Source: Myxococcota bacterium
GTDB taxonomy: Bacteria; Myxococcota_A; Polyangia; Nannocystales; Nannocystaceae
Reading direction: 5' to 3'
Assembly (NCBI GenBank): GCA_039028615.1
Contig: JBCCHT010000020.1
Coordinates: 1-64,000, forward strand
DNA: 64,000 nucleotides
How positions within the stretch are numbered: position 1 is the first letter of the stretch; each line of letters opens with the position of its first letter. The notes beneath the pieces are model-generated. The model ran no database searches. It saw only the letters and a list, made by a program, of their open reading frames with translations, and was not told the DNA's origin. The position numbers and the translations under genes are program-made. Below are positions 22,065-59,594 of this stretch, piece after piece.

Positions 22065-24113
22065 TTACTCGGGCTCGGCGTGCCCGACGTGCACTTCGAC
22101 CGAGCGCCCGTGTCCGCCTCCGAGCTTCTCCCAGCGGGTGCGACGCTCGGAGTCGCCCAGCCGTAGGTTCTCGAGCGCGGCATCGTCGAGCGTGGCGGTG
22201 GCGCGCACGTGCACCGTCTTGCCCTCGCGACTCACATCGATCTTCGACAGCGCGGGGAGGTCGGGCACGGTGGAGACGATGGTGGCGTAGCTGTCGGCCA
22301 GCTTCTCGCCCTTGATGGCCGCCGCTTCGTCGGCAAAGGTCGCCGCCGCATCGACGCCCAGCTCGTCCCACAGCTCGACGCCGCCGTGCACCGAGATCAT
22401 GTCCAGCGGCAGCACCCCGGCCGGAGGCCGACCGTAGCCCCACACGGGCGAGCGCAGATCCAGGGTGGAGATGACCTGATCGCGGAACTCGGTGGAGGTG
22501 GCCACGCCCTGGAGCTTGGCCGCGAGCTCTCCGGTGGTGATCTCGGGGCGGAAGCTCAGCACCATGGTCTGGGCGTCGTAGGCAATGCTGAGCACGGAGA
22601 ACTCCTCATCGCCGTGCTCGTCCTCCAGCTCCACGCGATGGAAGACGGCATCGGTATCCGCCGCGCCCTCGAGGGTAGAGGTCTCGACCTTCTTCGGCCC
22701 CGCCGCGTCGAGGCAGGGCTTCAGCGCCTCGGCCGACCAGTTGCCGTGCAGCACCAGCTCGCGCACCGTCTCGGCGGAGAACGCCGCCACGAGCTTGTAC
22801 GAGTGCTCCACCATGCTCTGCACACAGGGCTCGAGGTCGTCGTTCTGATCGGCGAGCACCGTCTCGCTGATGCGGCTGACCAGCGGCGCCTGCCGTAGCT
22901 CGGCCCAGTCCACGCCGACGACCCCGACCACCTCGGGATCGAGGGCCGCGAGCTCGCGCGCGGGCCAACGATTGAGCCGCGCGGCATCCGTGGCGCCCGT
23001 ACCCGCCTCGGCGGCGTCGGGCTCGGGCTCGGGCTCGTCGGGCGCAGTGGGCTCGGCCTCGGCGACGGTGGCCGGCGTGCTGGGCTCGGTGGCGGTCTCG
23101 GGCTCGTCGGGGGACCCCGACAACAGAAACACCATGGGTACGGCCACCGCCATCGCGACGGCGAGACCCAACCACCACCAGGATCGGGAGGGCGTTTCGA
23201 TCCCGATGGTGGTCGGGTCGGACATCGAGGACAGCGCGGCTTGCAGGTCGCTGACGGCCGAGAAGCGACGCTCGCGATCGGACTCGAGCGCCCGCATGAC
23301 GATCTCGTCGAGCGCGGCGTTGCCTCGACCCATCTCGGAGGGCGCGGGGAACCGCCCTACCGGGAGCTGGCCGGTCAGCATCTCGTAGCTGACGACACCG
23401 AGGGCAAAGATGTCGCAGCGCGAGTCGACGCCGGCCGGGTCCCGCATCTGCTCGGGGGCCATGTAGTGCAGCGTGCCCATGACGCGCCGCGTTCGGGTGC
23501 GCTCGGTAGGGTTTTCTTGCTGGAGCTTGGCGAGCCCGAAATCGGCCACCCGCACCCGGCCGCGCCGGTCGAGCAGGACGTTCTCTGGCTTGATGTCGCG
23601 ATGCACCACGCCTTCGTCGTGGGCGTAGGCCAGCGCATCGCACAGCTGCCGCAGCACCTCGATGGCCTGCTCGTCCTCCATGCCCACGTCGATGAGCTCG
23701 CGCAGGTTGGGGCCGTCGACCAGCTCCATCACCAGGTAGTACACGCCCGCCGCAAATCCGAAGTCGTGCACCCCGACGATGCCGGGGTGGTCGAGCCGGG
23801 CGAGCGCCTTGGCTTCGCGTTCGAATCGCTCGGCAAACTCGGGGTCGGCGCTGAGCGTGGGGTTCATCAGCTTGACCGCCACGTCGCGATCGAGCCGGAC
23901 CTGGCGGGCCCGCATCACGATGCCCATGCCGCCGCGCCCCAGGCACCCGTACAGCTCGAGCTCGGGACAGGCGCACAAGAAGGCGCCGAGGTCGAACTCG
24001 GTCTCGAGGTCTCCGGCCTCCTCCCCGCCGCCGAGACCCAGGGAGAGGAGGTCGGCGGGGGTGGGGTTCGTCGCGGAGACGAAGGAGTGCGTGCTCGGCT
24101 GTGGCATGGGCAT
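22065..24113 (-). CDS. membrane Ser/Thr protein kinase with extracytoplasmic C-terminal domain
   Basis: LGRGGMGIV, VAVK, HRDIKPEN, DFGLAK, GTLHYMAPE; TM WWWLGLAVAMAVAVPMVFLL; start uncertain. Confidence 0.92.
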   Translation of the reverse strand: MPMPQPSTHSFVSATNPTPADLLSLGLGGGEEAGDLETEFDLGAFLCACPELELYGCLGRGGMGIVMRARQVRLDRDVAVKLMNPTLSADPEFAERFEREAKALARLDHPGIVGVHDFGFAAGVYYLVMELVDGPNLRELIDVGMEDEQAIEVLRQLCDALAYAHDEGVVHRDIKPENVLLDRRGRVRVADFGLAKLQQENPTERTRTRRVMGTLHYMAPEQMRDPAGVDSRCDIFALGVVSYEMLTGQLPVGRFPAPSEMGRGNAALDEIVMRALESDRERRFSAVSDLQAALSSMSDPTTIGIETPSRSWWWLGLAVAMAVAVPMVFLLSGSPDEPETATEPSTPATVAEAEPTAPDEPEPEPDAAEAGTGATDAARLNRWPARELAALDPEVVGVVGVDWAELRQAPLVSRISETVLADQNDDLEPCVQSMVEHSYKLVAAFSAETVRELVLHGNWSAEALKPCLDAAGPKKVETSTLEGAADTDAVFHRVELEDEHGDEEFSVLSIAYDAQTMVLSFRPEITTGELAAKLQGVATSTEFRDQVISTLDLRSPVWGYGRPPAGVLPLDMISVHGGVELWDELGVDAAATFADEAAAIKGEKLADSYATIVSTVPDLPALSKIDVSREGKTVHVRATATLDDAALENLRLGDSERRTRWEKLGGGHGRSVEVHVGHAEPE

Positions 24114-24125
24114 GGAGCGGGTGGA

Positions 24126-25025
24126 TCAGTCACCCGAGCCGATGTGGATCTCGAAGCCTTGCTTCTCGTCGCCGTCGGGCGCGTCACCGACCTGGAACTG
24201 CACGCTGCTGCCCTTACGGGCGTGGGGGTGACCGTGGTGCCCACGACGCTTCTCGCTCATGGCCTTGAACGCTTCCATCTGCTTGGGCGTGGCGTGGACC
24301 TCGGCGGTAATCGTATCGCCATCGGAGTCGAGGTCGACGACCGAGGCCAGCTCGCCCATCTCACCCGAGGCCCGCAGCGCGACCAGGCCGAGCGTCGCCT
24401 GCCCGTAAAGCTCGGCCGCCTTGGCGGGGTCCTTGAACTGGGCTTCCACGTGGGCGTCGAGGCCCTTGTCGAAGTTGGCCCACGCCTCGACGTGGGACAC
24501 GGGGCTGTCCTTCTCGTCGATGGTCGCGGTGAACCATGCGGGTTTCCCGCTGACGGGGGCCGAGCCCTCGAGCTGACGGAGGCGGGCCGTGCTGGGGGTC
24601 AGGTTGCCGCCGAACACCGCAAACACGCCGTCGGCGACGAGCGTGGCCTCGGGGGTCGGGTGGTCGTCGTGGTCACCCTTGGCGGTCTCCTCGGCCACCT
24701 TGGCGTCGATGAACTCGCTGCACGCGTTGGCGGTGTTCGCGGCAATCGGGCCCTTGATGTAGGCCTCGAAGGTGTCCTCACCGACGCCGAAGGTGACGGA
24801 CTCGGCCTGGCGCAAGACGTCGCCACAGGCCCCCAGCTCGCCCTTGTCGTCGAGTTTGGCGTCGAGCATCGCCTTCTCCATCCACGGCGCCTTTTTCACC
24901 TCGGCCAGGTCGACGTGGCCGATGGCGCGGTAGTCCACGTCGGTGGGGGTCTCGGCATCGCACGCGGACAGGGGCGCGGCGAGGACGAGCAGCGAGAGGG
25001 TGAGGGCGTGGCGCTTCGTGGTCAT
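24126..25025 (-). CDS. lipoprotein resembling the extracytoplasmic domain of the downstream kinase
   Basis: Lipobox LSAC; similar segments to the kinase C-terminal domain (see findings). Confidence 0.82.
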   Translation of the reverse strand: MTTKRHALTLSLLVLAAPLSACDAETPTDVDYRAIGHVDLAEVKKAPWMEKAMLDAKLDDKGELGACGDVLRQAESVTFGVGEDTFEAYIKGPIAANTANACSEFIDAKVAEETAKGDHDDHPTPEATLVADGVFAVFGGNLTPSTARLRQLEGSAPVSGKPAWFTATIDEKDSPVSHVEAWANFDKGLDAHVEAQFKDPAKAAELYGQATLGLVALRASGEMGELASVVDLDSDGDTITAEVHATPKQMEAFKAMSEKRRGHHGHPHARKGSSVQFQVGDAPDGDEKQGFEIHIGSGD

Positions 25026-25078
25026 GGGGGGTCCTGGGGACTCCGCGGCCGTTCGTTACAGGCCCCTCGAAAAAAAGA

Positions 25079-25789
25079 TCAGGTGCGCACCGCATCGATG
25101 ACCGCGCGCAGCTCGTCGTCGATCTCGGCCGCCGAGGACACCGTTTCGGCCACCTCGTCGCGCAGGGCGGCCCGAAATCGAGTCCGCAGGCGATGCACGG
25201 CCACGCGGGCGTTGGCCTCGGTCATCGACAGCTGCTCGGCGACCTCGCGATAGCGCGGGGCATCGGCCGCGAGCAAGAACGGGGAGAGCACCTCGAAGCG
25301 GGCCTGCTGCCCTTCTTTTTCGTAGCGCTCCTGGAGCCGACGACGGGCTCGCCCCAGGATCTCCATCGCCCACGCGTAGGCATAGGCCTGCTCCGGGGTG
25401 CGGTCGTCGGGGATCTCGAGGGTGCGCTCGGCGTCGTCGTGGTCGATGCTGAGCGAGACCGGGGCCTGGCCGCCGCCGCGCTTGAGCGCGTGGGCCCGGG
25501 TGCGCTCGGTCGACACGTAGTGACGCAAGGCCGCGAGCAGATACGACCGAAAGCGCCCTCGATCGCGATCGATGCCCGCGATGCCGCTGCCCGTGAGCAG
25601 CGACGACAAGAAGCCCTGCACCGTGTCTTCGGCGTCCTCGGGGCTCAGGCCGTCACGACGCAGGAACGCATACAGCGGCCGCCAGTAGGCATCACACAGC
25701 TCGTGCAGCGCCCGGGTCCGCGGTGAGGTCGGGCTCTTCGCCGCACCGAGCACGATGCTCCAGCGCGTGGTGGGAAAGTGGCCGCCCAT
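25079..25789 (-). CDS. ECF sigma-70 factor of the kinase-associated type
   Basis: FPTTRWSIV N-terminus, YWRPLYAFLRR, DAEDTVQGF, GRFRSYL, YREVAEQLSMTEANARVAVHRLR. Confidence 0.9.
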   Translation of the reverse strand: MGGHFPTTRWSIVLGAAKSPTSPRTRALHELCDAYWRPLYAFLRRDGLSPEDAEDTVQGFLSSLLTGSGIAGIDRDRGRFRSYLLAALRHYVSTERTRAHALKRGGGQAPVSLSIDHDDAERTLEIPDDRTPEQAYAYAWAMEILGRARRRLQERYEKEGQQARFEVLSPFLLAADAPRYREVAEQLSMTEANARVAVHRLRTRFRAALRDEVAETVSSAAEIDDELRAVIDAVRT

Positions 25790-25882
25790 GCGTCGAGGAC
25801 AAGGGTGACATGGAACCCCCCGCGGAGATTCCAAGGACGCGCCTGGCCCCGCTACGCCCCCGCTGACGGGGGATCGGACGAC

Positions 25883-28682: not shown

Positions 28683-29975
28683 GTGATCCTGTTGATTCCC
28701 ACGGGTCACTCGGAGTCGGCCGTACGCCGCATTCCGTGGGTGACCCTCGTCATCATGGCGATCTGCCTGTTGGTGCAGATCCAGGCTTTCGTCTCGCCCC
28801 CGCCGGACGACCCCTTCGATGCGCTCATGGATCGAGAGGCCCTCATCGAGGAGCTGCTCTACGACTACGAGATGGAAGAGGCGTCGCCCGAGGGCCAGGA
28901 GGCCTTCATCGTCGCCTTCCAGGAGGGCTTCGCGGGCGACCCCGACGACCCGCTGCGTGATGAGCTGGACGCGGCCGAGAAAGCCCTCGAGGAGGCGCAG
29001 AACCGGCCGACCTCGTTGCTCGACGGCTATCGCCCCGCCGACGGTGGCGGACTCCCCATGATCGTCAGCGCCTTCGTGCACGACGGGTGGTTCGGGCTCA
29101 TCGGCAACCTGCTGTTCCTGTATCTCGTGGGCAGCACCCTCGAGGAGCGCTGGACCAAGGGCGGCTTCGCGGTGCTGTACCTCATGGGCATCATCGTCTC
29201 CGCGGCCACCTATGGTCTGGTGAACCCCGGCACCACCGTCCCGTTGATCGGGGCCTCGGGGGCCGTCGCCGCCGCGATGGGTGCATTCGTCGTCGTGCTC
29301 GGCGGCGTCCAGGTGCGGTTCGTCTACATCGCCTGGGCGTTCATCTACGTACGCACGGGCAACTTCTCGACGCGGGCCTATGTCGCGCTCGGGGTCTGGC
29401 TGGTCATGCACATCTTCATCGCGTGGCTCGAGGGGGCGGTGGGGCCCTCGGGCACCATCTCGCACTCGGCACAGCTCGGCGGGTTCGCGTTCGGGCTGGC
29501 GGTGGGCGGCATCATGCGGTTCACCGAGTGGGACGCCAAGCTGCATGCACTGGCCAACGCCAAGACCTTCGACATCTTCGAGCACGTGCCCAACGCCGCC
29601 ATGTCGCCCGAGCTGGTGGAGCAGGTCGAGCGGTACATCCACGAGGCCTCGCGTGAAGGGAAGTCGGCCGAGATCCTCGACCTGTACGACCTGGTGAACA
29701 AGCGCGGCGACATTCCGTTGGGCGACCGCTCGTTGCTCATGGTCGGGCAAGCGGCGGGCGACCTCGGTGAGGCCACCTTGGCCGTCTCGGTCACGCACGC
29801 GTTGATGACTCGGTTCCCGAAGAGCCCGTGTATCCCCCGGGCGATGTGGGACACGGCGAAGGTGCAGCGGAGCGCGGGGCGACCCGATCTCGCCGAGAAG
29901 ACCCTGCGCAACTTGGTGCGGCACTATCCGCACGATCCCTTCGCCCAGTCGGCGCGCGAAGAGCTGACGGGATAG
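28683..29975 (+). CDS. rhomboid-family intramembrane protein with C-terminal TPR (catalytic His apparently replaced)
   Basis: IPWVTL, FVHDGWFGLIGN, IGASGAVAA (catalytic Ser), HSAQLGG in place of AHLGG; TPR-like tail. Confidence 0.85.
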   Translation: MILLIPTGHSESAVRRIPWVTLVIMAICLLVQIQAFVSPPPDDPFDALMDREALIEELLYDYEMEEASPEGQEAFIVAFQEGFAGDPDDPLRDELDAAEKALEEAQNRPTSLLDGYRPADGGGLPMIVSAFVHDGWFGLIGNLLFLYLVGSTLEERWTKGGFAVLYLMGIIVSAATYGLVNPGTTVPLIGASGAVAAAMGAFVVVLGGVQVRFVYIAWAFIYVRTGNFSTRAYVALGVWLVMHIFIAWLEGAVGPSGTISHSAQLGGFAFGLAVGGIMRFTEWDAKLHALANAKTFDIFEHVPNAAMSPELVEQVERYIHEASREGKSAEILDLYDLVNKRGDIPLGDRSLLMVGQAAGDLGEATLAVSVTHALMTRFPKSPCIPRAMWDTAKVQRSAGRPDLAEKTLRNLVRHYPHDPFAQSAREELTG

Positions 29976-30109
29976 CTCGTACCTGGTCGCAGGTCCGTAC
30001 ACACGATCGTTCACCGAGTCTGGCCCGCGCTGCCGCGTGGGTCGGTGCTCGTCGTTTGGTTTGGGGCCGATTGTGTGATCCGAGAGCCACCGCGGCGCTC
30101 TACCACCCC

Positions 30110-31702
30110 ATGATTAGTTGGAATCGATTGTGGATTGATGGCGTGCTCCTGGCCGCAGGGCTGCTCTGGGCACGACCCGGGGCGGCCCACCCGATGTACG
30201 AGGTATGGAACTCGACGCCGTACGACCTGGAGACCCGGGCTCCCCTCGGGCCTCCCCCGGCGGGTGGCAACGACTTGTTCTATCGCTGGGTGCCGTTGTG
30301 CGAAGACGGATCCGGCGATCACGAGTGGTCGGAGACCGGAGGCGCGAGCGGGCTGGCGCCCACCTGTGCCGACAGCGAGTACATTCGCTGCATCGACGGC
30401 ACGCGGCCGCTGTACTACCTCGACGCCGCACGCGATCCGGGCTCGGCGACGGCCTATGCCGACACCGACGACTGGGTGTTCTGGTTTCAAGGCGGGGGCT
30501 CGTGCTCGGACACCCCGGGAGGAAGCGCCGCCGACAACTGCTGGAGCACCTACGACACGGCGTCGGAGCGGGACGAGATGTCCTCGATGGGCAAGCACCG
30601 CGCGATGGATGTCGAAGGGATCCTCGATCCCGACGAGCCGACCAATCGCTTTCGCGAGTTCAATCGCGTCCAGATCCGCAAGTGCTCCTACGATCGGTTC
30701 ATGGGTCGCGCCGAGCTGCTCGACCAGCCGGGTATCGCCCCGGATCCCATCGACTTGTATTGGCACGGGCGTCGTCAGATCGAAGCCGTATTCGCCGACC
30801 TCGACCGGGGTGCCGACTTCACGCCCCCCAGCGGTACACGCACGCTGCCCTCGCTCAGTGACGCGGAGACCGTGCTGTTCGCGGGCCACTCCGGTGGTTC
30901 TGGTGGCGTCATCATGAACGGCGACTGGATGGCGGAGCAGGTCCAGGCCTTGAACCCCGCCGTGCGTGCGCGGCTGCTCATCGATGCCCGCTTCAAGCCC
31001 TCGCTCGAGAACGAGGCGCACTTCGACACCGCCTCCGGCTGGACCGACATCGACGGCAGCGGAGTCATCGACATCTGGGATCACATCCAGCCCTCCCCGA
31101 CCAGTCCGGGGGCGCTGCCCGACAACTCGCACTACCACCGCGGGGCCTGGCTGCCCGGAGCCACCCGCGAGCGTCAGCTCTCGCAGTGGGACGCCGACGT
31201 CGACGACTCCTGCGAAGCGGTCAATGGAGCCTGGGCCACCCGCTGCCTCGAGGAGTTCCACGTCATGGCGAACTACGTCGAGACCCCCTTCTTCTTGCGC
31301 CAGGCCCTCGTCGATCAGAGCCACGTCGACAGCTACGTCGCCCACGCCGACATGCAGAGCTTCGGGTACACCGAGCCCGAGTTCCGAGAGCGGGTGGTCT
31401 TTCAGCTCGCGAGCTTCGTCCAGGGACCACCCCCCTCACCCGTCGCGCCCGGCCCCTTCCGAAGCTGGCCTCTGGGCATCTTCGCCCCCGACGTCGCCAA
31501 ACATGCGGGCAACACCAACGAGGCCCAGTTCTTCCAGCTCGGGCTGTGCGAGCCCGGCTCGACCCCGACGTCCGTCCCCTGGACCTACCACGACGCGCTC
31601 GTCGAGTGGCTGATGCACGACACCGAGATCGTCGCGATCGAGGACCCGAGCTCACCGATGGGCGCGTACTACCGCCCCAGCGCTCTCGGTGGGCCCTGCT
31701 GA
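30110..31702 (+). CDS. pectin acetylesterase/Notum-family hydrolase, secreted
   Basis: Signal peptide; CIDGTRPLYY, WVFWFQGGGSC, KCSYDRFMG, LFAGHSGGSGG nucleophile motif. Confidence 0.8.
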   Translation: MISWNRLWIDGVLLAAGLLWARPGAAHPMYEVWNSTPYDLETRAPLGPPPAGGNDLFYRWVPLCEDGSGDHEWSETGGASGLAPTCADSEYIRCIDGTRPLYYLDAARDPGSATAYADTDDWVFWFQGGGSCSDTPGGSAADNCWSTYDTASERDEMSSMGKHRAMDVEGILDPDEPTNRFREFNRVQIRKCSYDRFMGRAELLDQPGIAPDPIDLYWHGRRQIEAVFADLDRGADFTPPSGTRTLPSLSDAETVLFAGHSGGSGGVIMNGDWMAEQVQALNPAVRARLLIDARFKPSLENEAHFDTASGWTDIDGSGVIDIWDHIQPSPTSPGALPDNSHYHRGAWLPGATRERQLSQWDADVDDSCEAVNGAWATRCLEEFHVMANYVETPFFLRQALVDQSHVDSYVAHADMQSFGYTEPEFRERVVFQLASFVQGPPPSPVAPGPFRSWPLGIFAPDVAKHAGNTNEAQFFQLGLCEPGSTPTSVPWTYHDALVEWLMHDTEIVAIEDPSSPMGAYYRPSALGGPC

Positions 31703-31751
31703 GCGTGTAGTGAAAAATCTGGGGCACCGCACGCCGCGGTGCCCCTTCGCG

Positions 31752-32354
31752 CTACAGGTCGGTCCGCGGCGCCGTCCGCAGGACCCGGTGTCGAATGCCG
31801 GTGGTTCCTCGCACCGCGCGTTCGATCGTCGCTGACACATGAGCACGACCCGCCATGATCGTCTCGCCGGTCTCGAGTGTCTTGGGCGCCCCGAGAAACT
31901 CGGTGGGCCACCCGTTGGCGGTGAAGACCTTCCGCCACAACGCGGGGGGCATCACCCCCACGAAGGTGTCGACCTCGTTCAACTTCGCCCACTCGATTTT
32001 TGCCACCAACAGGTGCTGGACGATCCGAGTTCGCAGGGCGCCGGGCGCGGCCACTCCGAGGCGCGAACTCTCCCAGATGTTCGGCGCCGAAGGGGTCGGC
32101 CCATCGATCATGTCGGGCCACAAATCACCCAACATGTACTGCTGTGTCGTGGGTGTCAGACGACTCATGCCACAGACGAGTCCCCCGATGACCCGATAGA
32201 GTAGATAGTGAGAAGAGGGGTTATCGTAGTTATCCCATGATAGTCCAGCGAACGTAGGAACGTTGTAGTTCTGCCTCAGGCGAAAGTGCCGATCTTGGAA
32301 GCGATACATCTCGAGATACCCGCGACCGAACAAGTGGGCCGTTTCGGCCGTCAT
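31752..32354 (-). CDS. luxI: LuxI-family acyl-homoserine lactone synthase-like protein (orphan, diverged)
   Basis: F-x5-Y, DNYDNPSSHYLL, GMSRLTPTT, YMLGDLWP, IWESSRLGV, GWPTEFLG; start could be ATG 32354, ACG 32366 or further upstream. Confidence 0.85.
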   Translation of the reverse strand: MTAETAHLFGRGYLEMYRFQDRHFRLRQNYNVPTFAGLSWDNYDNPSSHYLLYRVIGGLVCGMSRLTPTTQQYMLGDLWPDMIDGPTPSAPNIWESSRLGVAAPGALRTRIVQHLLVAKIEWAKLNEVDTFVGVMPPALWRKVFTANGWPTEFLGAPKTLETGETIMAGRAHVSATIERAVRGTTGIRHRVLRTAPRTDL

Positions 32355-32634
32355 GCATTCGATCGTGAGTGGTTCATCGAGACGAGGAAGGGTCCTCGCA
32401 CGGTGTGCATTGCCTCGGAAGTTGGTGTCTCGACCTGCCCGATCCCATTTGGTTCCTGTCATCTCTCTCCTTGCGGTTTTTGGGCGCATGGGTATCCCCC
32501 TCCAGCAAGCACGCGCCGTCTCGCTTCCTGGCTGGTTTGGCCTCATCGACGAGACCTCATTTCAGACAGAGCAGACCGCTACGACTCTCACGCAACGCGT
32601 CGACACGAGTGCCAACATGATGCTGCTTTGTCTC

Positions 32635-32659
32635 AGGCAGAGTCGTTACAACTCTGCCT
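32635..32659. promoter_or_regulatory. perfect 9-bp inverted repeat upstream of the luxI-like gene
   Basis: AGGCAGAGT-CGTTACA-ACTCTGCCT. Confidence 0.4.
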
Positions 32660-32827
32660 ACCGCCCTTCCTCGGGAGCGACACAGTGCCTTCGCACGTTT
32701 CACGCCCGATCCCCCGGCATCTTTGAATATACCTTCTGGCCGGATGTAGGTCAACGACAGAATCGCGTTCACGCGCTGCGGACGCCAAGATTGAGGCACT
32801 TCGTCATTCGTCCGCGCGGCTGCGACA

Positions 32828-35563
32828 CTATCGAACCATCGCGTCGAGCTCCGCCTGCAGCTTGCCCACCAGCTCGTGCTCGGCACCCAACGCCTCGCGC
32901 ACGACCTCGATCGCAACGCCCATCTCCGCACGGGCCTGGTCGATGCGCCCCTGCTCCGCCCAGATGAGCGCGCGAGACTTCCGAGCCTGCGCGGTGAGGA
33001 CATGGCCCGGCCCCACGCTGGCCAGGGTGATCGCGAGGGCTCGCTCGGCGTGCTCGGTGGCTTCGTCGAGCTTGCCCTGGCGCTGGAGGATGGTGGCGAG
33101 ATGGGTATGGGTGCGCCCAGTCTCTCGATGCTCGTCGCCCAGGGAGTCGCGCTGCAGCGACAGCGCGCGACGAGACATGGGCTCCGCGTCCTCGAAGCGG
33201 CCGAGCTTGAGGCGCATGACGGCCACGTTGTCGAGCAGCAGGGCCAACCCGACTGCGTCCTCGGGCGAGTTGCGCTCGGCGATCTCCACCAGCTCCACCA
33301 GCATGGCCTCGGCTTCGCGGTGCTTGCCCAGCTCGCCGAGGTTGAGGGCGAGGCCGTTGCGCACGCTGACGACTTGGTCGTGCTCGGGACCCAGCTCGCG
33401 GGACCACAGGTCGATCAAGAAGCGCAGGTGCTCATTGCTCTTTTCGTAGTTGCCCCGCCGCGCCTCGAGGTGGGCGAGGTTGGCCCGCGAGATGCCGGCA
33501 TCGGGGTGCTGGGGGCCGAGCGTGGAGTTGAAGATCTCATAGGCGGCCGAGGCGTTGGCGAAGGCCTCGTCGTAGTCACCCGCGACGGTCTGCGTGTCGG
33601 CGAGATCGTCGAGGATCCGTGCGCGCTGGTCGGGACGATGCCCGTGGGTTTCGCCGTGCCCTTCGAGGATCGTCAACGCGCTACGAAAGCCTTCGATGGC
33701 GCCCGGGAGATCGCCGCGCCGACTGGACAGCCAGGCCACGGCCCAGTGGAGCTCCATGGCGGCATCGGAGTCGGAGCCCGCGGACTCGACCATCGCACGC
33801 GCATGTCCATGCCACGCGTCGGCCGATCCGCTGCTGCCCAAAAACTCGTGCAGGCGCATGGCCCCAGCGGCGCAGCGCGTGGCCAGGGTGGCTTCTCCGG
33901 CTCGCTGAGCCAAGAAGAAGGCCTCTTCGTACAAGGGCAAGGCCTCGGCGTAGCGGGCGAGTTCCTGCTCCATGCGAGCCGCGCGGGCAATGAGGCGGGC
34001 GGCCAGCGTGGGATGAACCGAGGCGATCGCTCGCGCTCGTTCGAGATGCGCGGCGAGTAGCTCGGCCACCGCCTTGAAGCGACCGGCCGAGTGCATCGCC
34101 CCCGACCGCGCCAGCACGTCTGCCAATACGTCGAGCTCGGGTTGCAGCGCGGGGTCCGGCGGTGGCGACTCGACGGAGCTCAGCAGGTCGATGTCGGAGC
34201 AGCGCGCGAGCGCGGGCAAGCTCATGACCATGGCACGGACCCGAGTGCGCTGGGCGGGCTCGAAGGCTTCGAGCTGATCGACGAGCGCCGCGAGGTGCCG
34301 CCGCCGGTCGACCAGGCAGGCGTTGCGCGAGTCGAGCAGGACCGGACTCTGCACGGCGCGTACATGGGTCGCCTCGCAGTTGTCTCGATGGACACGGCTC
34401 CACTCCGACGCATAGCGATCGAGACCCTCGAGGACCCGCGCGGGCGTCTCGGCGGCGCCCGAGCTCCATGCCTCTCGATCGAGCGCCTCGGTCACGGCCG
34501 CTCGGCGGTCGTCGTCCCAGGTGCCGGTCAGCGCGGCTGGGCCCGCACAGTCGACCTCGGGGTCGCCTGGCGCCCCGACCAGGACCGCTCCCGTCACGAT
34601 CAACGCCGCGACGGCCCCGACGCTCACGACCCGGAGCCGAGACCCACGACCCGCCCGCAGCAGCGCGCGACGCATGGCGTCCATGGAAGGGAAGCGCGCG
34701 CCGGGCTCCTGCTGCAGGCCTCGCTCGATGATCTTGCTCAGCCACCGCGGGACGACGAGCGCATCCTGACCGGAGGACTCCGTCGGCGCGGCGCGGGGGA
34801 ACCGACGGTGCACGGCCACGTGCAGCGCGACGGCGAACGCATATTGGTCGCTGAAGGTGTCGGCCGGCTGCCCCTGCGCCAGCTCGGGCGCCATGTACAG
34901 CGGCGTGCCCACGATCCCCGTGTTCTGCGGCGCGGCGCCGGAGGCCACGTCCTCTTCGGTGGGAACGCGGCGCTCACTGGACCGCGCCAGGCCGAAGTCG
35001 ACCAGCCGCACGCGACCATCGAGGCCGACGCGCACGTTGTCGAGCTTGAAGTCGCGATGAACGACGCCCTGGGCATGCGCCCCGCACAGCCCGGCCGCCG
35101 CTTGGATGAAGACGTCGAGCACTTCGTCGAGGGTCCGGGCGCGGGCTTGCAACCACGCGCGGAGGTCCTGCCCCTCGACCAGCTCCATGACCACGTAGAC
35201 CTGCTCGTCGTGCTCGCCGACGTCGAGCACCTCGACGATGTTGGGATGCGACAGTCGAGCCAGCGCGCGCGCCTCGAGCCCCAAGCGACGCCGCCGCATG
35301 GCTTCGGTTCGCGGCCGACCGGGCTCCGGCCGAATGAGCTTGAGCGCGACCTTGCGACCCAGCCGAGGGTCCTCGGCGACATAGACCCGGCCCATGGCGC
35401 CGCTGCCCGCGAGGCCGACGATCTCGTAGCCGCCGACCTCCACCGGGGTGCTCACCTCGCCGAACAGCCGCCCCATGACCGAGCCCCGGGTGCGCTGCAG
35501 GTCGAGCGCATCGAAGGACGGAGTGGGAGCCTCGGCGAGCGAATCGTCGTCGATCGTGCTCAT
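32828..35563 (-). CDS. Ser/Thr protein kinase with TM segment and TPR repeats
   Basis: AGSGAMGRV, VALK, HRDFKLDN, DFGLA, GTPLYMAPE; TPR10-like repeats (LGPQHPD, LGPEHDQ, LGDEHRE). Confidence 0.93.
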   Translation of the reverse strand: MSTIDDDSLAEAPTPSFDALDLQRTRGSVMGRLFGEVSTPVEVGGYEIVGLAGSGAMGRVYVAEDPRLGRKVALKLIRPEPGRPRTEAMRRRRLGLEARALARLSHPNIVEVLDVGEHDEQVYVVMELVEGQDLRAWLQARARTLDEVLDVFIQAAAGLCGAHAQGVVHRDFKLDNVRVGLDGRVRLVDFGLARSSERRVPTEEDVASGAAPQNTGIVGTPLYMAPELAQGQPADTFSDQYAFAVALHVAVHRRFPRAAPTESSGQDALVVPRWLSKIIERGLQQEPGARFPSMDAMRRALLRAGRGSRLRVVSVGAVAALIVTGAVLVGAPGDPEVDCAGPAALTGTWDDDRRAAVTEALDREAWSSGAAETPARVLEGLDRYASEWSRVHRDNCEATHVRAVQSPVLLDSRNACLVDRRRHLAALVDQLEAFEPAQRTRVRAMVMSLPALARCSDIDLLSSVESPPPDPALQPELDVLADVLARSGAMHSAGRFKAVAELLAAHLERARAIASVHPTLAARLIARAARMEQELARYAEALPLYEEAFFLAQRAGEATLATRCAAGAMRLHEFLGSSGSADAWHGHARAMVESAGSDSDAAMELHWAVAWLSSRRGDLPGAIEGFRSALTILEGHGETHGHRPDQRARILDDLADTQTVAGDYDEAFANASAAYEIFNSTLGPQHPDAGISRANLAHLEARRGNYEKSNEHLRFLIDLWSRELGPEHDQVVSVRNGLALNLGELGKHREAEAMLVELVEIAERNSPEDAVGLALLLDNVAVMRLKLGRFEDAEPMSRRALSLQRDSLGDEHRETGRTHTHLATILQRQGKLDEATEHAERALAITLASVGPGHVLTAQARKSRALIWAEQGRIDQARAEMGVAIEVVREALGAEHELVGKLQAELDAMVR

Positions 35564-36180
35564 GACAGGTCCGCGGCCATGTAGTCGCGAATCTGCTCCG
35601 ACCATCGCTCCAGCCCGTCCAAGGTCGATTGCAGCTGCGCGGGGGAGCGCGCGAGCCGATGCAGCGCCGCCTCGAGCGATTGCCGAGCCGAGCGCAGGCG
35701 CGTGCGCACGGTGCCTTCGGGTACGCCGAGCACGGCCCCCAGCTCCCGGCCGCGCATGCGCTCCCAATAAAACAGCTCGAGCAAGACCTGCTCGTCGAGG
35801 GGAATGGAGCGCAGTGCCTCGAGCAATAGCCGCTGCTCCTGGCGCTGGGCCAGCACCGCCGTGGGCGTCGCCCCCAGCTCGGCCACCGACTGCCGACTCA
35901 GATCGAGCGCCTCGTGACCACGATGCCGCGACCGATAGTGATCGGTCAGCACGTTGCGGGCCACCGCGAACAGGTAGGCCCGGAAATTGCCCCGCTCGAC
36001 GATGGCCTCCTTGGCCTGGGAGCAGCGCAGGAAGGTGGCCTGGACGAGGTCGTCCAGCTCACCGTCGACCTTGTTGCGAAAGAAACGATAGACGGACACG
36101 AAGTAGCGCTCGACCAGCAGGTTGCCCGCCGCTCGGTCGCCGTGGCGCCAGGCAGCGAGGAGCTCCGCGTCCGTGGACAC
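35560..36180 (-). CDS. ECF sigma-70 factor translationally coupled to the kinase
   Basis: DAELLAAWRHGD, DDLVQATF, FRAYLFAVARN, LGVPEGTVRTRL; ATGA overlap with the kinase start; GTG start inferred. Confidence 0.9.
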   Translation of the reverse strand: MSTDAELLAAWRHGDRAAGNLLVERYFVSVYRFFRNKVDGELDDLVQATFLRCSQAKEAIVERGNFRAYLFAVARNVLTDHYRSRHRGHEALDLSRQSVAELGATPTAVLAQRQEQRLLLEALRSIPLDEQVLLELFYWERMRGRELGAVLGVPEGTVRTRLRSARQSLEAALHRLARSPAQLQSTLDGLERWSEQIRDYMAADLS

Positions 36181-36322
36181 GGAAGCACGGTAACACCCAT
36201 GCAGGGGGTGATGAAGGAAGCGTGGGGGCAGGACGGGGACAAGACGGACCCCCGCCAGATTCGATTGCACAAAGTCGAAAAGACCTCGCTCCTCCCCCGC
36301 GAGGGTCGAACGCGGCGCGTTT

Positions 36323-57841: not shown

Positions 57842-58855
57842 CTAGTCTTCAGCGAAGGGCCAGTCGACTTCGATCGCCGGATCGTCAAAACTCGTGGCAG
57901 GCAAGCTGGCACCCATTTTGCTGCGATCGACTGGTCCCTCTCGCTTCTGGTACTCCCGCCAATCACCTGCCTCGACACGGTCGCCAGCCTTGATCGCAGA
58001 GATCACGCGAGGTACGACCGTAACCATTTCAGGTCTGCTTCTGCCCTTTCGTGGGCAGGGGAAAAACAGCGTTGGAGGGTCTGTCGTGCGATCCACGCGA
58101 GGGGAAGTGCATCCGCTGCGATTGTTCTGAATCCCAACCAGCGCTCCGGTCGTCGACGAGAACACGGGGCTCCCCGAGGAGAACTCCGCCACGTAGGCAG
58201 TGTGGCGGCGGGCCTTGAACGCGTCGAATCGACCTCGCTGCAGTGCTCCATGTGTGTACACACCAGGAATTCCCAGGGGACTACCTACGAGGTACGCGCC
58301 TCCCCTCGTGGGCACTTTGGATCGAACGTCGGCGACGACCCCTCCAAGCGGCTCCGCAAGTTCTAGTAGGGCCAGGGGGACCTTTCCTCCCCCCACATTT
58401 CTACGGTAGCGGAAGGCAGTCACCTTGACCCACTTTCGGCCCGCAACACTTTGAACGCGGGCATCTTCCAAATCGAGACACGTGCGACAATCGAAACAGT
58501 GTGTGGCAGTGAGCACTAGGCTAGGGGAAACCAAAACTCCTGAGCAACGCGCGATGGAAGGCTCATCTCGCCAACGCACACGTCCAGACCATTCGCAGCG
58601 TTTCGCACCACACGGATCGTCCGGGCGTCTGACCACCTCGCGCAGCTTCCGCGGTCTCGCCGTTAGGGCAACGTGAGCGATGGTCACTGCTGCGCGAACG
58701 TTTCGGTTGAAGCCCACTGGCTTCGGAAACGCCTCAGTGACCTTCTTCATCGGGGGCTCATGGGTCCTCGAGCAAGTAGCCGAGGGGCCATTGTGGCTAC
58801 AGCTCGAGGCCCCAATCACAACCATTAGTAACGGTCCGGCCCATCGTAGGAGCAT
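57842..58855 (-). CDS. trypsin-like (S1) serine protease lipoprotein, very basic, catalytic Asp apparently absent
   Basis: Lipobox-like ASSC; CSGVLVSPSLVLTATHC; VPLALLEL; FSSGSPVF..GALVGI. Confidence 0.75.
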   Translation of the reverse strand: MLLRWAGPLLMVVIGASSCSHNGPSATCSRTHEPPMKKVTEAFPKPVGFNRNVRAAVTIAHVALTARPRKLREVVRRPDDPCGAKRCEWSGRVRWRDEPSIARCSGVLVSPSLVLTATHCFDCRTCLDLEDARVQSVAGRKWVKVTAFRYRRNVGGGKVPLALLELAEPLGGVVADVRSKVPTRGGAYLVGSPLGIPGVYTHGALQRGRFDAFKARRHTAYVAEFSSGSPVFSSTTGALVGIQNNRSGCTSPRVDRTTDPPTLFFPCPRKGRSRPEMVTVVPRVISAIKAGDRVEAGDWREYQKREGPVDRSKMGASLPATSFDDPAIEVDWPFAED

Positions 58856-58858
58856 GCG

Positions 58859-59266
58859 CTATTTCCGCTTGACGACAACCCGAAGGGCGATCCCGGGAGT
58901 TCCGTCGGGGATCTCCCAGCAAAAGTAGGGGTCACGATTTCCGGGCACATCGAACTCATAGATCGTGGTCGAGCTTCCAGCCTGGGCTGGCGTGACCCCC
59001 GAACTCGGCTCGAACGTCGGGGACGAACCACTCTGATGGAGGATGGTTAGCCGCACGTTGGCCACCGAAGCATCCCCCACGAAATACTCAATCGTATGGA
59101 GGTTCGCACCGAGAGAAACCCCCGTGGGCGAAAAGTATGGAATGCCGTTCGCATCGACTCCACTCTTGATCTCAGTGGAAAGCACACCGTCGATCTCGGC
59201 TTCGTCTTGCTCGCAGGTCCCCTGGTTATCGAAGCAATTGGAAATCAGGTTGACGCTGTTAGCCAT
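58859..59266 (-). CDS. small acidic hypothetical protein
   Basis: Strong RBS (AAAGGAGAAAATAGAC-ATG); ends 3 nt before the protease start; C-terminus LRVVVKRK. Confidence 0.75.
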   Translation of the reverse strand: MANSVNLISNCFDNQGTCEQDEAEIDGVLSTEIKSGVDANGIPYFSPTGVSLGANLHTIEYFVGDASVANVRLTILHQSGSSPTFEPSSGVTPAQAGSSTTIYEFDVPGNRDPYFCWEIPDGTPGIALRVVVKRK

Positions 59267-59594
59267 GTCTATTTTCTCCTTTGTTGTGCCCTGAGGCAGT
59301 GTTGAGCGACGATATCCCGACCGGATGGCCGCCGAATCTATAGTGATCGCCGGACTCTATTCCGTTGCAAGTTATCCTGCTGTCTTGGAACTTCGAGTCC
59401 CATAACGGCCCACTACCCCACACATCGCCCCTGCTTACGAACACAGGATGTGCAGAGATCTTTTCGAGAGGGGGGACGCTTGAGTTCGCGCAGCAAAATC
59501 TCTCCACGGCTTCGACACGTGCCTTGAAAGTGCTTCCAGGCGCCATGCCCCCAACGTTCAATCTACCTTGACCCTGCCGACGCCTGAAGGCGGC

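Follow-up and report, generated by a model that had tools for sequence, protein, structure and literature searches.

The window, the whole 64,000-nucleotide stretch of a Nannocystaceae (Myxococcota) genome analysed here, contains on its minus strand a LuxI-type open reading frame (ORF; 31752-32546) of 264 aa counted from the first ATG, which has no internal stops and lies in a frame that is open over 269 codons, free of any stop, frameshift or truncation. The features of the locus are as follows, core residues being numbered from the ACG codon at 32366.

31752..32546, minus strand: ORF for a putative variant LuxI-type acyl-homoserine lactone (AHL) synthase (PF00765 55 bits, PDB matches, AF2 pLDDT 93.5, VIA Z 25-26 to RpaI, MesI and BjaI)
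31755-32366, minus strand: family core of the ORF, 204 aa
32295..32297, minus strand: Gln codon CAA for the invariant Arg (LasI Arg23; Arg in 162/162 subfamily rows)
32235..32240, minus strand: Ser-Trp for Glu-Tyr/Phe of ExDxxD (Glu in 161/162 rows; Ser codon TCA at 32238-32240)
32364..32366, minus strand: Thr codon ACG where the family has its start codon (ATG or GTG exactly there in 41 of 48 related loci)
32367..32546, minus strand: in-frame extension at the N-terminus, its three ATGs (32546, 32489 and 32462) being candidate starts, each with a 5-6 nt Shine-Dalgarno match upstream
32726..32754, minus strand: sigma-70-type promoter-like site facing the gene, TTGACC-17-TATATT (0.6% of 1000 shuffles)
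32634..32709, minus strand: structured leader with two predicted hairpins (fold z -3.76), of which the second (32635-32659) is formed by a near-perfect palindrome of 25 nt
32434..32451, minus strand: possible weak, eroded remnant of the donor module's 18-bp lux-box-like palindrome, spaced from the family start as in the modules and now within the extension (position-limited P 0.012)
31721..31745, minus strand: intrinsic-terminator-like hairpin and T tail, 6 nt past the stop, possibly shared with the convergent esterase gene

The first-pass annotation had read a LuxI-type signal synthase from three motifs, DNYDNPSSHYLL, SRLTPTT and WESSRL, all of which were found in the ORF. This assignment is borne out by the profile search named there as a check, in which PF00765 matched with 55.2 bits (E 8.7e-15, curated cut-off 24) as the sole Pfam family at E ≤ 0.01, by a PDB sequence search in which 7 of 7 matches were AHL synthases, and by the predicted fold. 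The AF2 model built from 57 sequences reached pLDDT 93.5 (76.5 from 3 sequences); it draws on canonical relatives and thus says nothing on the folding of the altered N-terminal segment. When the model was submitted to VIA, ranks 1-11 were all AHL synthases (Z 17.4-26.2; next match 14.7), among them RpaI (26.2), MesI (25.5) and BjaI (25.4), and AHL synthases likewise took ranks 1-12 in Foldseek. The N-acyl amino acid synthases FeeM and TyzA have, like the query, a GNAT fold related to LuxI, but membership in such another GNAT family was rejected by profile (no FeeM or Acetyltransf_5 Pfam match at E ≤ 0.01) and by structure (FeeM Z 13.6 versus 17-26 for AHL synthases), Foldseek agreeing. Profile and model evidence together confirm the ORF as a full-length LuxI-fold protein of the PF00765 family, with an enzymatic product that is a prediction.

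The best structural matches, the CoA-dependent synthases BjaI, RpaI and MesI of solved structure, align at Z 25-26 over 193-199 residues, but are only 19-22% identical to the query and carry a two-Trp indole platform, a feature of CoA-dependent synthases according to the available text of PMC8188788. In a PDB sequence alignment the query has L143/W144 where these have W142/W143, and because one platform Trp of two is present the acyl donor is left open.

The family core has a GC content of 61.3% against 68.3% for the genome, and its GC3 of 0.76 compares with 0.83-0.91 in five neighbouring genes. Equally GC-poor values occur in 0.9% of 4698 long ORF ends, the GC3 lies in the lowest 3.5%, and a 58.2% GC segment falls among the lowest 0.8% of 24,488 genome windows, so the A/T-richer patch described earlier is real but modest. 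A second low-GC patch (55-61%) lies at 57842-59561, with a trypsin-like peptidase (57842-58855, minus strand) and an uncharacterised 135-aa ORF (58859-59266, minus strand). A Logan contig of the same depth spans 29500-34911 with 0 differences, although it was probably built from the reads behind the assembly and is then no independent evidence; because it spans this interval without differences, the gene is physically joined to its myxobacterial neighbours, and an assembly chimera was rejected. The S7 protein marks the host as a myxobacterium, grouping at 90% with Nannocystaceae-named proteins, and the DNA was located in a single run, a marine metagenome, with no RNA run listed. By Pfam the neighbours are a convergent esterase-like gene, a Ser/Thr kinase and an ECF sigma factor, none of them biosynthetic. 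Two ECF sigma/Ser-Thr kinase pairs flank the region (22065-25834 and 32828-36270), and no synteny was seen in the examined congener stretches for the block that the pairs enclose. No empty site was found by synteny in three congener stretches, where ridA-terB-ftsW is kept and the adjoining block is not; the esterase orthologue in genome G003 sits among other neighbours.

The absence of a LuxR-type regulator, noted at first for the 64 kb only, extends genome-wide: the genome (96.7% complete) gave 0 matches to PF03472, the LuxR ligand domain, and a profile derived from the 33 luxR ORFs in related loci matched only HTH domains in it. The query is thus supported as an orphan at the genome level with respect to a LuxR with an autoinducer-binding domain. 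Its distribution is equally narrow. None of 60 relatives had a PF00765 match, and the query protein was found in 0 of 72 other genomes of the family, apart from one match at E 0.0099. Searching 400 genomes of the phylum gave three matches, one above the cut-off and the other two Acetyltransf_5 proteins, while 400 genomes of the class, searched with the sister protein P0141 described below, yielded two others (31% and 27% identical to the query) and no genome that hosts P0141. These two, L117 (G717) and L118 (G640), are LuxI-like candidates with canonical Arg and Glu in stretches of 55-56% GC, and PF03472 has no match in either genome. A LuxI/FeeM-like gene of 73% GC (L100:1333-2115) was also seen in G361, another genome of the phylum, which has no PF03472 match. 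No close orthologue was found in JGI metagenome contigs, which gave one 19-residue match, or in viral contigs, which gave one match of 23% identity. The record of Pseudomonas phage Y5 (OQ572407.1) holds an unannotated LuxI-like frame (27% identity, E 3e-9).

The named nearest kin of the protein, up to 45% identical, come mostly from alphaproteobacterial MAGs and isolates (Rhodospirillales, Magnetospirillum, Micavibrio-like, Rickettsiales), and in the tree the query nests among alphaproteobacterial proteins within an unresolved polytomy, so that the exact donor is not singled out. LuxR was present in all 46 genomes tested (from 80 loci returned), and luxR was adjacent in 46 of 48 related loci. 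The usual order of the module is luxR, a CCTAC-N8-GTAGG-like palindrome, luxI and a small ORF. The 18-bp palindrome CCTAC-N8-GTAGG lies 45-110 nt before the luxI start in 27 of the 48 loci (L002-L049) and is likely the lux box of the subfamily. The small ORF (about 55-120 aa, with LxYLxxEA) stands 3' of luxI in many modules and often overlaps the luxI stop, as at L002:5625-5981; the L002 copy has no Pfam match, and possibly represents an undescribed third quorum-sensing gene. MAGs that bear the labels Actinomycetota, Anaerolineaceae, Isosphaeraceae and Patescibacteria (L002, L009, L025 and L028) carry the same luxR-luxI module too, through either transfer or mis-binning. Alphaproteobacterial nesting, low GC and the 0 of 72 family genomes together lend support to the horizontal origin suggested at first pass, and the gene was likely acquired from this alphaproteobacterial subfamily. 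Searches of the flanking DNA by blastx, hmmsearch and nhmmer recovered nothing of luxR, of the small third ORF or of the donor leader, and a retained donor module was rejected but for, at most, a faint remnant of the box. That candidate scores 3.3 with a weight matrix whose 26 training sites score 3-28 (median near 20), and the scan upstream of the gene gave a second weak match of 8.7 at 290 nt.

To place the substitutions, the query was aligned with LasI. Of the eight-residue LuxI set (R, F, W, D, D, R, E, R) six are identical in the query, the Trp being Tyr and the Arg being Gln, and a near-invariant Glu beyond this set is Ser. LasI Arg23 thus corresponds to Gln24, Trp33 to Tyr34 (TAC, 32265-32267) and the Glu of ExDxxD to Ser43; the codon list and this alignment agree with the first-pass reading of these substitutions and of the ACG. 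On its residues the query is filed as a solo-LuxI-like variant that departs from the invariant set, and as a putative AHL synthase. Arg23, Phe27 and Trp33 are described as the putative S-adenosylmethionine (SAM) pocket of LasI in the accessible text of PMC1282579 and PMC4655403, and that of PMC3907830 counts the Arg among eight residues termed invariable.

Comparison with relatives gave these changes a different meaning. The 162 subfamily rows, from which duplicates, 32 rows of greater distance and the frameshifted P0005, L038, L040 and L050 had been removed, have Tyr at position 34 in 132 cases and Trp in the remaining 30; Tyr is the norm of the subfamily, and Trp→Tyr, first taken as a sign of divergence, was dismissed as such and as a lesion. 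An exhaustive search identified the nearest relatives, P0141 (54% identical) and P0145 (40%). The tree unites the query with P0141 at support 98/90 and both with P0145 at 96/92 (bootstrap not fully settled), with path lengths from the query of 0.83 and 1.57 changes per site to the two sister proteins. At positions 24, 43 and 44, P0141 reads R, S, W and P0145 reads Q, C, W, each triple occurring in one of 148 further representatives. The Glu of ExDxxD is therefore lost in all three clade members, and Gln replaces the N-terminal Arg in the query and P0145. Among the 148 representatives Arg24 is kept in 138, and Gln appears only in P0145, where it coincides with loss of the Glu; one row has Trp for Arg, apparently in a damaged stretch, and a few carry Asp or Gln for the Glu. 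The start position follows the same pattern: ATG or GTG stands within one codon of the ACG position in 47 of 48 related loci, and P0145 has Thr there as well, behind a 21-aa extension (P0141 is called from residue 7). The view of these substitutions and the ACG as damage private to the query genome, arising from the first-pass annotation, was thereby overturned. Compensation by the nearby Arg22 or Arg26 was likewise rejected, most relatives having Arg or Lys at those positions already.

Because they are shared with P0141 and/or P0145, the Arg, Glu and start changes are likely inherited, and the apparent lesions would mostly be traits of a long-lived variant lineage, not recent decay. As P0141 keeps Arg, Arg→Gln may have had one origin followed by reversion or two origins. 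All three proteins have open frames and keep Phe28, Tyr34, Asp45, Asp48, Arg69, Met78, Glu99 and Arg102.

The losses are unevenly placed. Four of 22 near-invariant columns are lost in the query, all of them among the first seven, with the remaining 15 intact (scan-corrected P 0.046, Fisher 0.005). Of the 15 conserved columns within residues 22-52 it retains 8, a lower count than in every one of the 162 relatives, and the GC3 of this segment is 0.56 (permutation P 0.014); beyond it, 28 of 35 well-conserved columns are kept, inside the range of the relatives. At the 80% conservation level, the N-terminal part and the remainder differ only at P 0.085. This pattern could reflect decay of the query copy, the Arg loss, eroded box and A/T drift stemming from relaxed selection after loss of luxR. 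Consistent with decay are the local drop in GC3, the marginal contrast at the 80% level, the occurrence of the gene as a singleton among 73 family genomes, and the end branch of 0.50 for the query against 0.33 for its sister, on which Arg→Gln may have arisen since P0141 retains Arg. In a neutral simulation with three relatives' genes and no indels, moreover, 13-34% of runs still had an open frame after 0.06-0.1 changes per base. However, three of the four near-invariant losses (L23F, E43S/C and R24Q) recur in the sister proteins, neither stop nor frameshift has appeared, and the gene is framed by a strong promoter-like site, three Shine-Dalgarno-led in-frame ATGs and a terminator. Decay of this copy appears distinctly unlikely to us, and a dead or decaying gene, taken as one rival to our preferred reading, somewhat unlikely. 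Of the three options first offered (a signal acting on prey, altered chemistry, decay) the first two stay hypotheses, and decay is the weakest, most changes being shared with P0141/P0145 and so likely inherited.

The expression signals, namely promoter, leader, Shine-Dalgarno sequences and terminator, are pattern matches picked after inspection. At least two Shine-Dalgarno-led in-frame starts arose in 0.2% of 3000 shuffles, and the promoter-like site is one of 34 in the genome (24.5 million strand-bases), many of the others lying, by eye, just 5' of plausible starts. Judged from these matches, a housekeeping-type promoter of its own likely drives transcription of the gene. The promoter-like site might also yield a short RNA ending at the leader hairpin. 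The N-terminal extension found no homologue except itself among proteins of 145-462 aa. The leader palindrome has no other copy in the genome and no Rfam match, so a repeat family or an Rfam RNA was rejected; leader homologues sought in 72 family genomes amounted to chance-level matches of 25-31 nt, and antisense pairing of the leader with the coding region was also at chance level (290 of 500 shuffles equally good).

We favour, at a probability of roughly 45%, a LuxR-independent variant synthase that probably still makes an AHL for other species. This reading is favoured because of the clade support, the shared triple, the kept active-site residues, the conservation after residue 52, the full-length model and the expression signals. 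In such a scheme, a stand-alone luxI would derive from an alphaproteobacterial luxR-luxI module whose luxR and third gene were lost, and translation would begin at one of the upstream ATGs. The enzyme is predicted to acylate and lactonise SAM to an AHL that would act on neighbour or prey bacteria and not on its owner, perhaps at a low turnover rate. Judging from three proteins, Arg and Glu may form a working pair, such that loss of the Glu freed the Arg; the remaining active-site set (the eight residues from Phe28 to Arg102 listed above) would be kept by selection and still bind SAM. The solo, low-GC synthase AgpI, which made C8/C9-AHL in E. coli according to the accessible text of PMC7862692, is a precedent in favour of this reading. 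Counting against an AHL-making synthase are the place of the Arg in the putative SAM pocket and in the invariable set, all eight residues of which AgpI and VitI keep in that account (PMC7862692), together with the poor conservation and low GC3 of residues 22-52 and the singleton status in the family. The leader hairpin, which could end transcription before the ORF, also counts against it, as does the loss of activity reported for single Arg or Glu mutants of RhlI and LuxI.

The clustering of losses on the N-terminal, SAM-facing side and the [SC]W motif common to all three clade members would also suit altered chemistry, in which acyl transfer is kept and another amine acceptor, or the lack of lactonisation, leads to a non-AHL amide for which LuxR is needless; the related GNAT folds FeeM and TyzA make other amides, as the available part of PMC10404671 has it. 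Yet Tyr34, Asp45, Met78, Arg69, Glu99 and Arg102 are all kept, Acetyltransf_5 relatives also keep Arg and ExDxYD, so that the loss is no pointer to an amino-acid acceptor, and none of the neighbouring genes is biosynthetic; we consider such chemistry unlikely. Positions Tyr34, Asp45 and Met78 presumably correspond to adenine contacts in BjaI. Retention of the fold and of most pocket residues over long branches, combined with loss of two canonical charged residues, could instead point to a pseudo-enzyme, conserved in the clade as a non-catalytic binder of SAM, MTA, acyl-thioesters or a partner protein, but the locus offers no partner gene, and the acylation-side Glu99 and Arg102 persist in all three members, which makes this highly improbable. 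A bolder proposal, which we hold to be unlikely too, is that the query, P0141 and P0145 form an undescribed LuxI sub-lineage lacking the Arg-Glu pair and the family start, a scaffold making a non-canonical small molecule from its own strong promoter in a receptor-less marine predatory myxobacterium. The clade is also a natural experiment on supposedly invariant LuxI residues, with Arg in one of three members and Glu in none, which bears on whether Arg and Glu are dispensable as a pair or the LuxI family has a new product.

So far a single lineage, Archangium/Vitiosangium, has prompted the question of why predators that lack a receptor keep AHL synthases, and the query is likely an independent case from another myxobacterial class; the two further LuxR-less candidates in the same class suggest repeated capture. 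Solo myxobacterial synthases are already known, and the motif variant without Arg and Glu appears new in the literature searched, where we found no description of the query clade or of the degenerate motif variant; most subscription papers and the supplements of PMC7862692 and PMC13293253 lie outside this coverage and may bear on novelty. In the accessible text of PMC7862692, AgpI (Archangium gephyra) and VitI (Vitiosangium) are solo AHL synthases active in E. coli, AgpI is silent in culture, and two other myxobacterial homologues without some of the eight residues are mentioned. The Archangium WIMLSP homologues are linked to Microvirga (PMC13293253), and AgpI and VitI are tied to synthases of the Microvirga/Chelatococcus type in what is available of PMC7862692 and PMC13293253.

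Among known systems, the alphaproteobacterial modules (Magnetospirillum, Phaeospirillum, Asticcacaulis, Micavibrio-like and Rhodospirillales MAGs) share with the query Tyr for Trp, the WPD and GVMP motifs and the same C-terminus; those modules, however, have their own luxR adjacent, often a box, the small ORF, and the retained Arg and Glu, whereas the query locus has the synthase alone. AgpI and VitI, as far as the published text describes them, likewise are LuxI proteins of predatory myxobacteria with GC below that of the host, no adjacent luxR (for AgpI, none genome-wide) and a likely alphaproteobacterial origin, but keep all the conserved residues, where the query lacks the Arg and the Glu. 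The query further differs from them in belonging to a marine Nannocystaceae genome and in nesting within a Rhodospirillales/Micavibrio-type subfamily, which makes an acquisition independent of the AgpI lineage likely, as judged from the separate placements and not from a direct alignment to AgpI.
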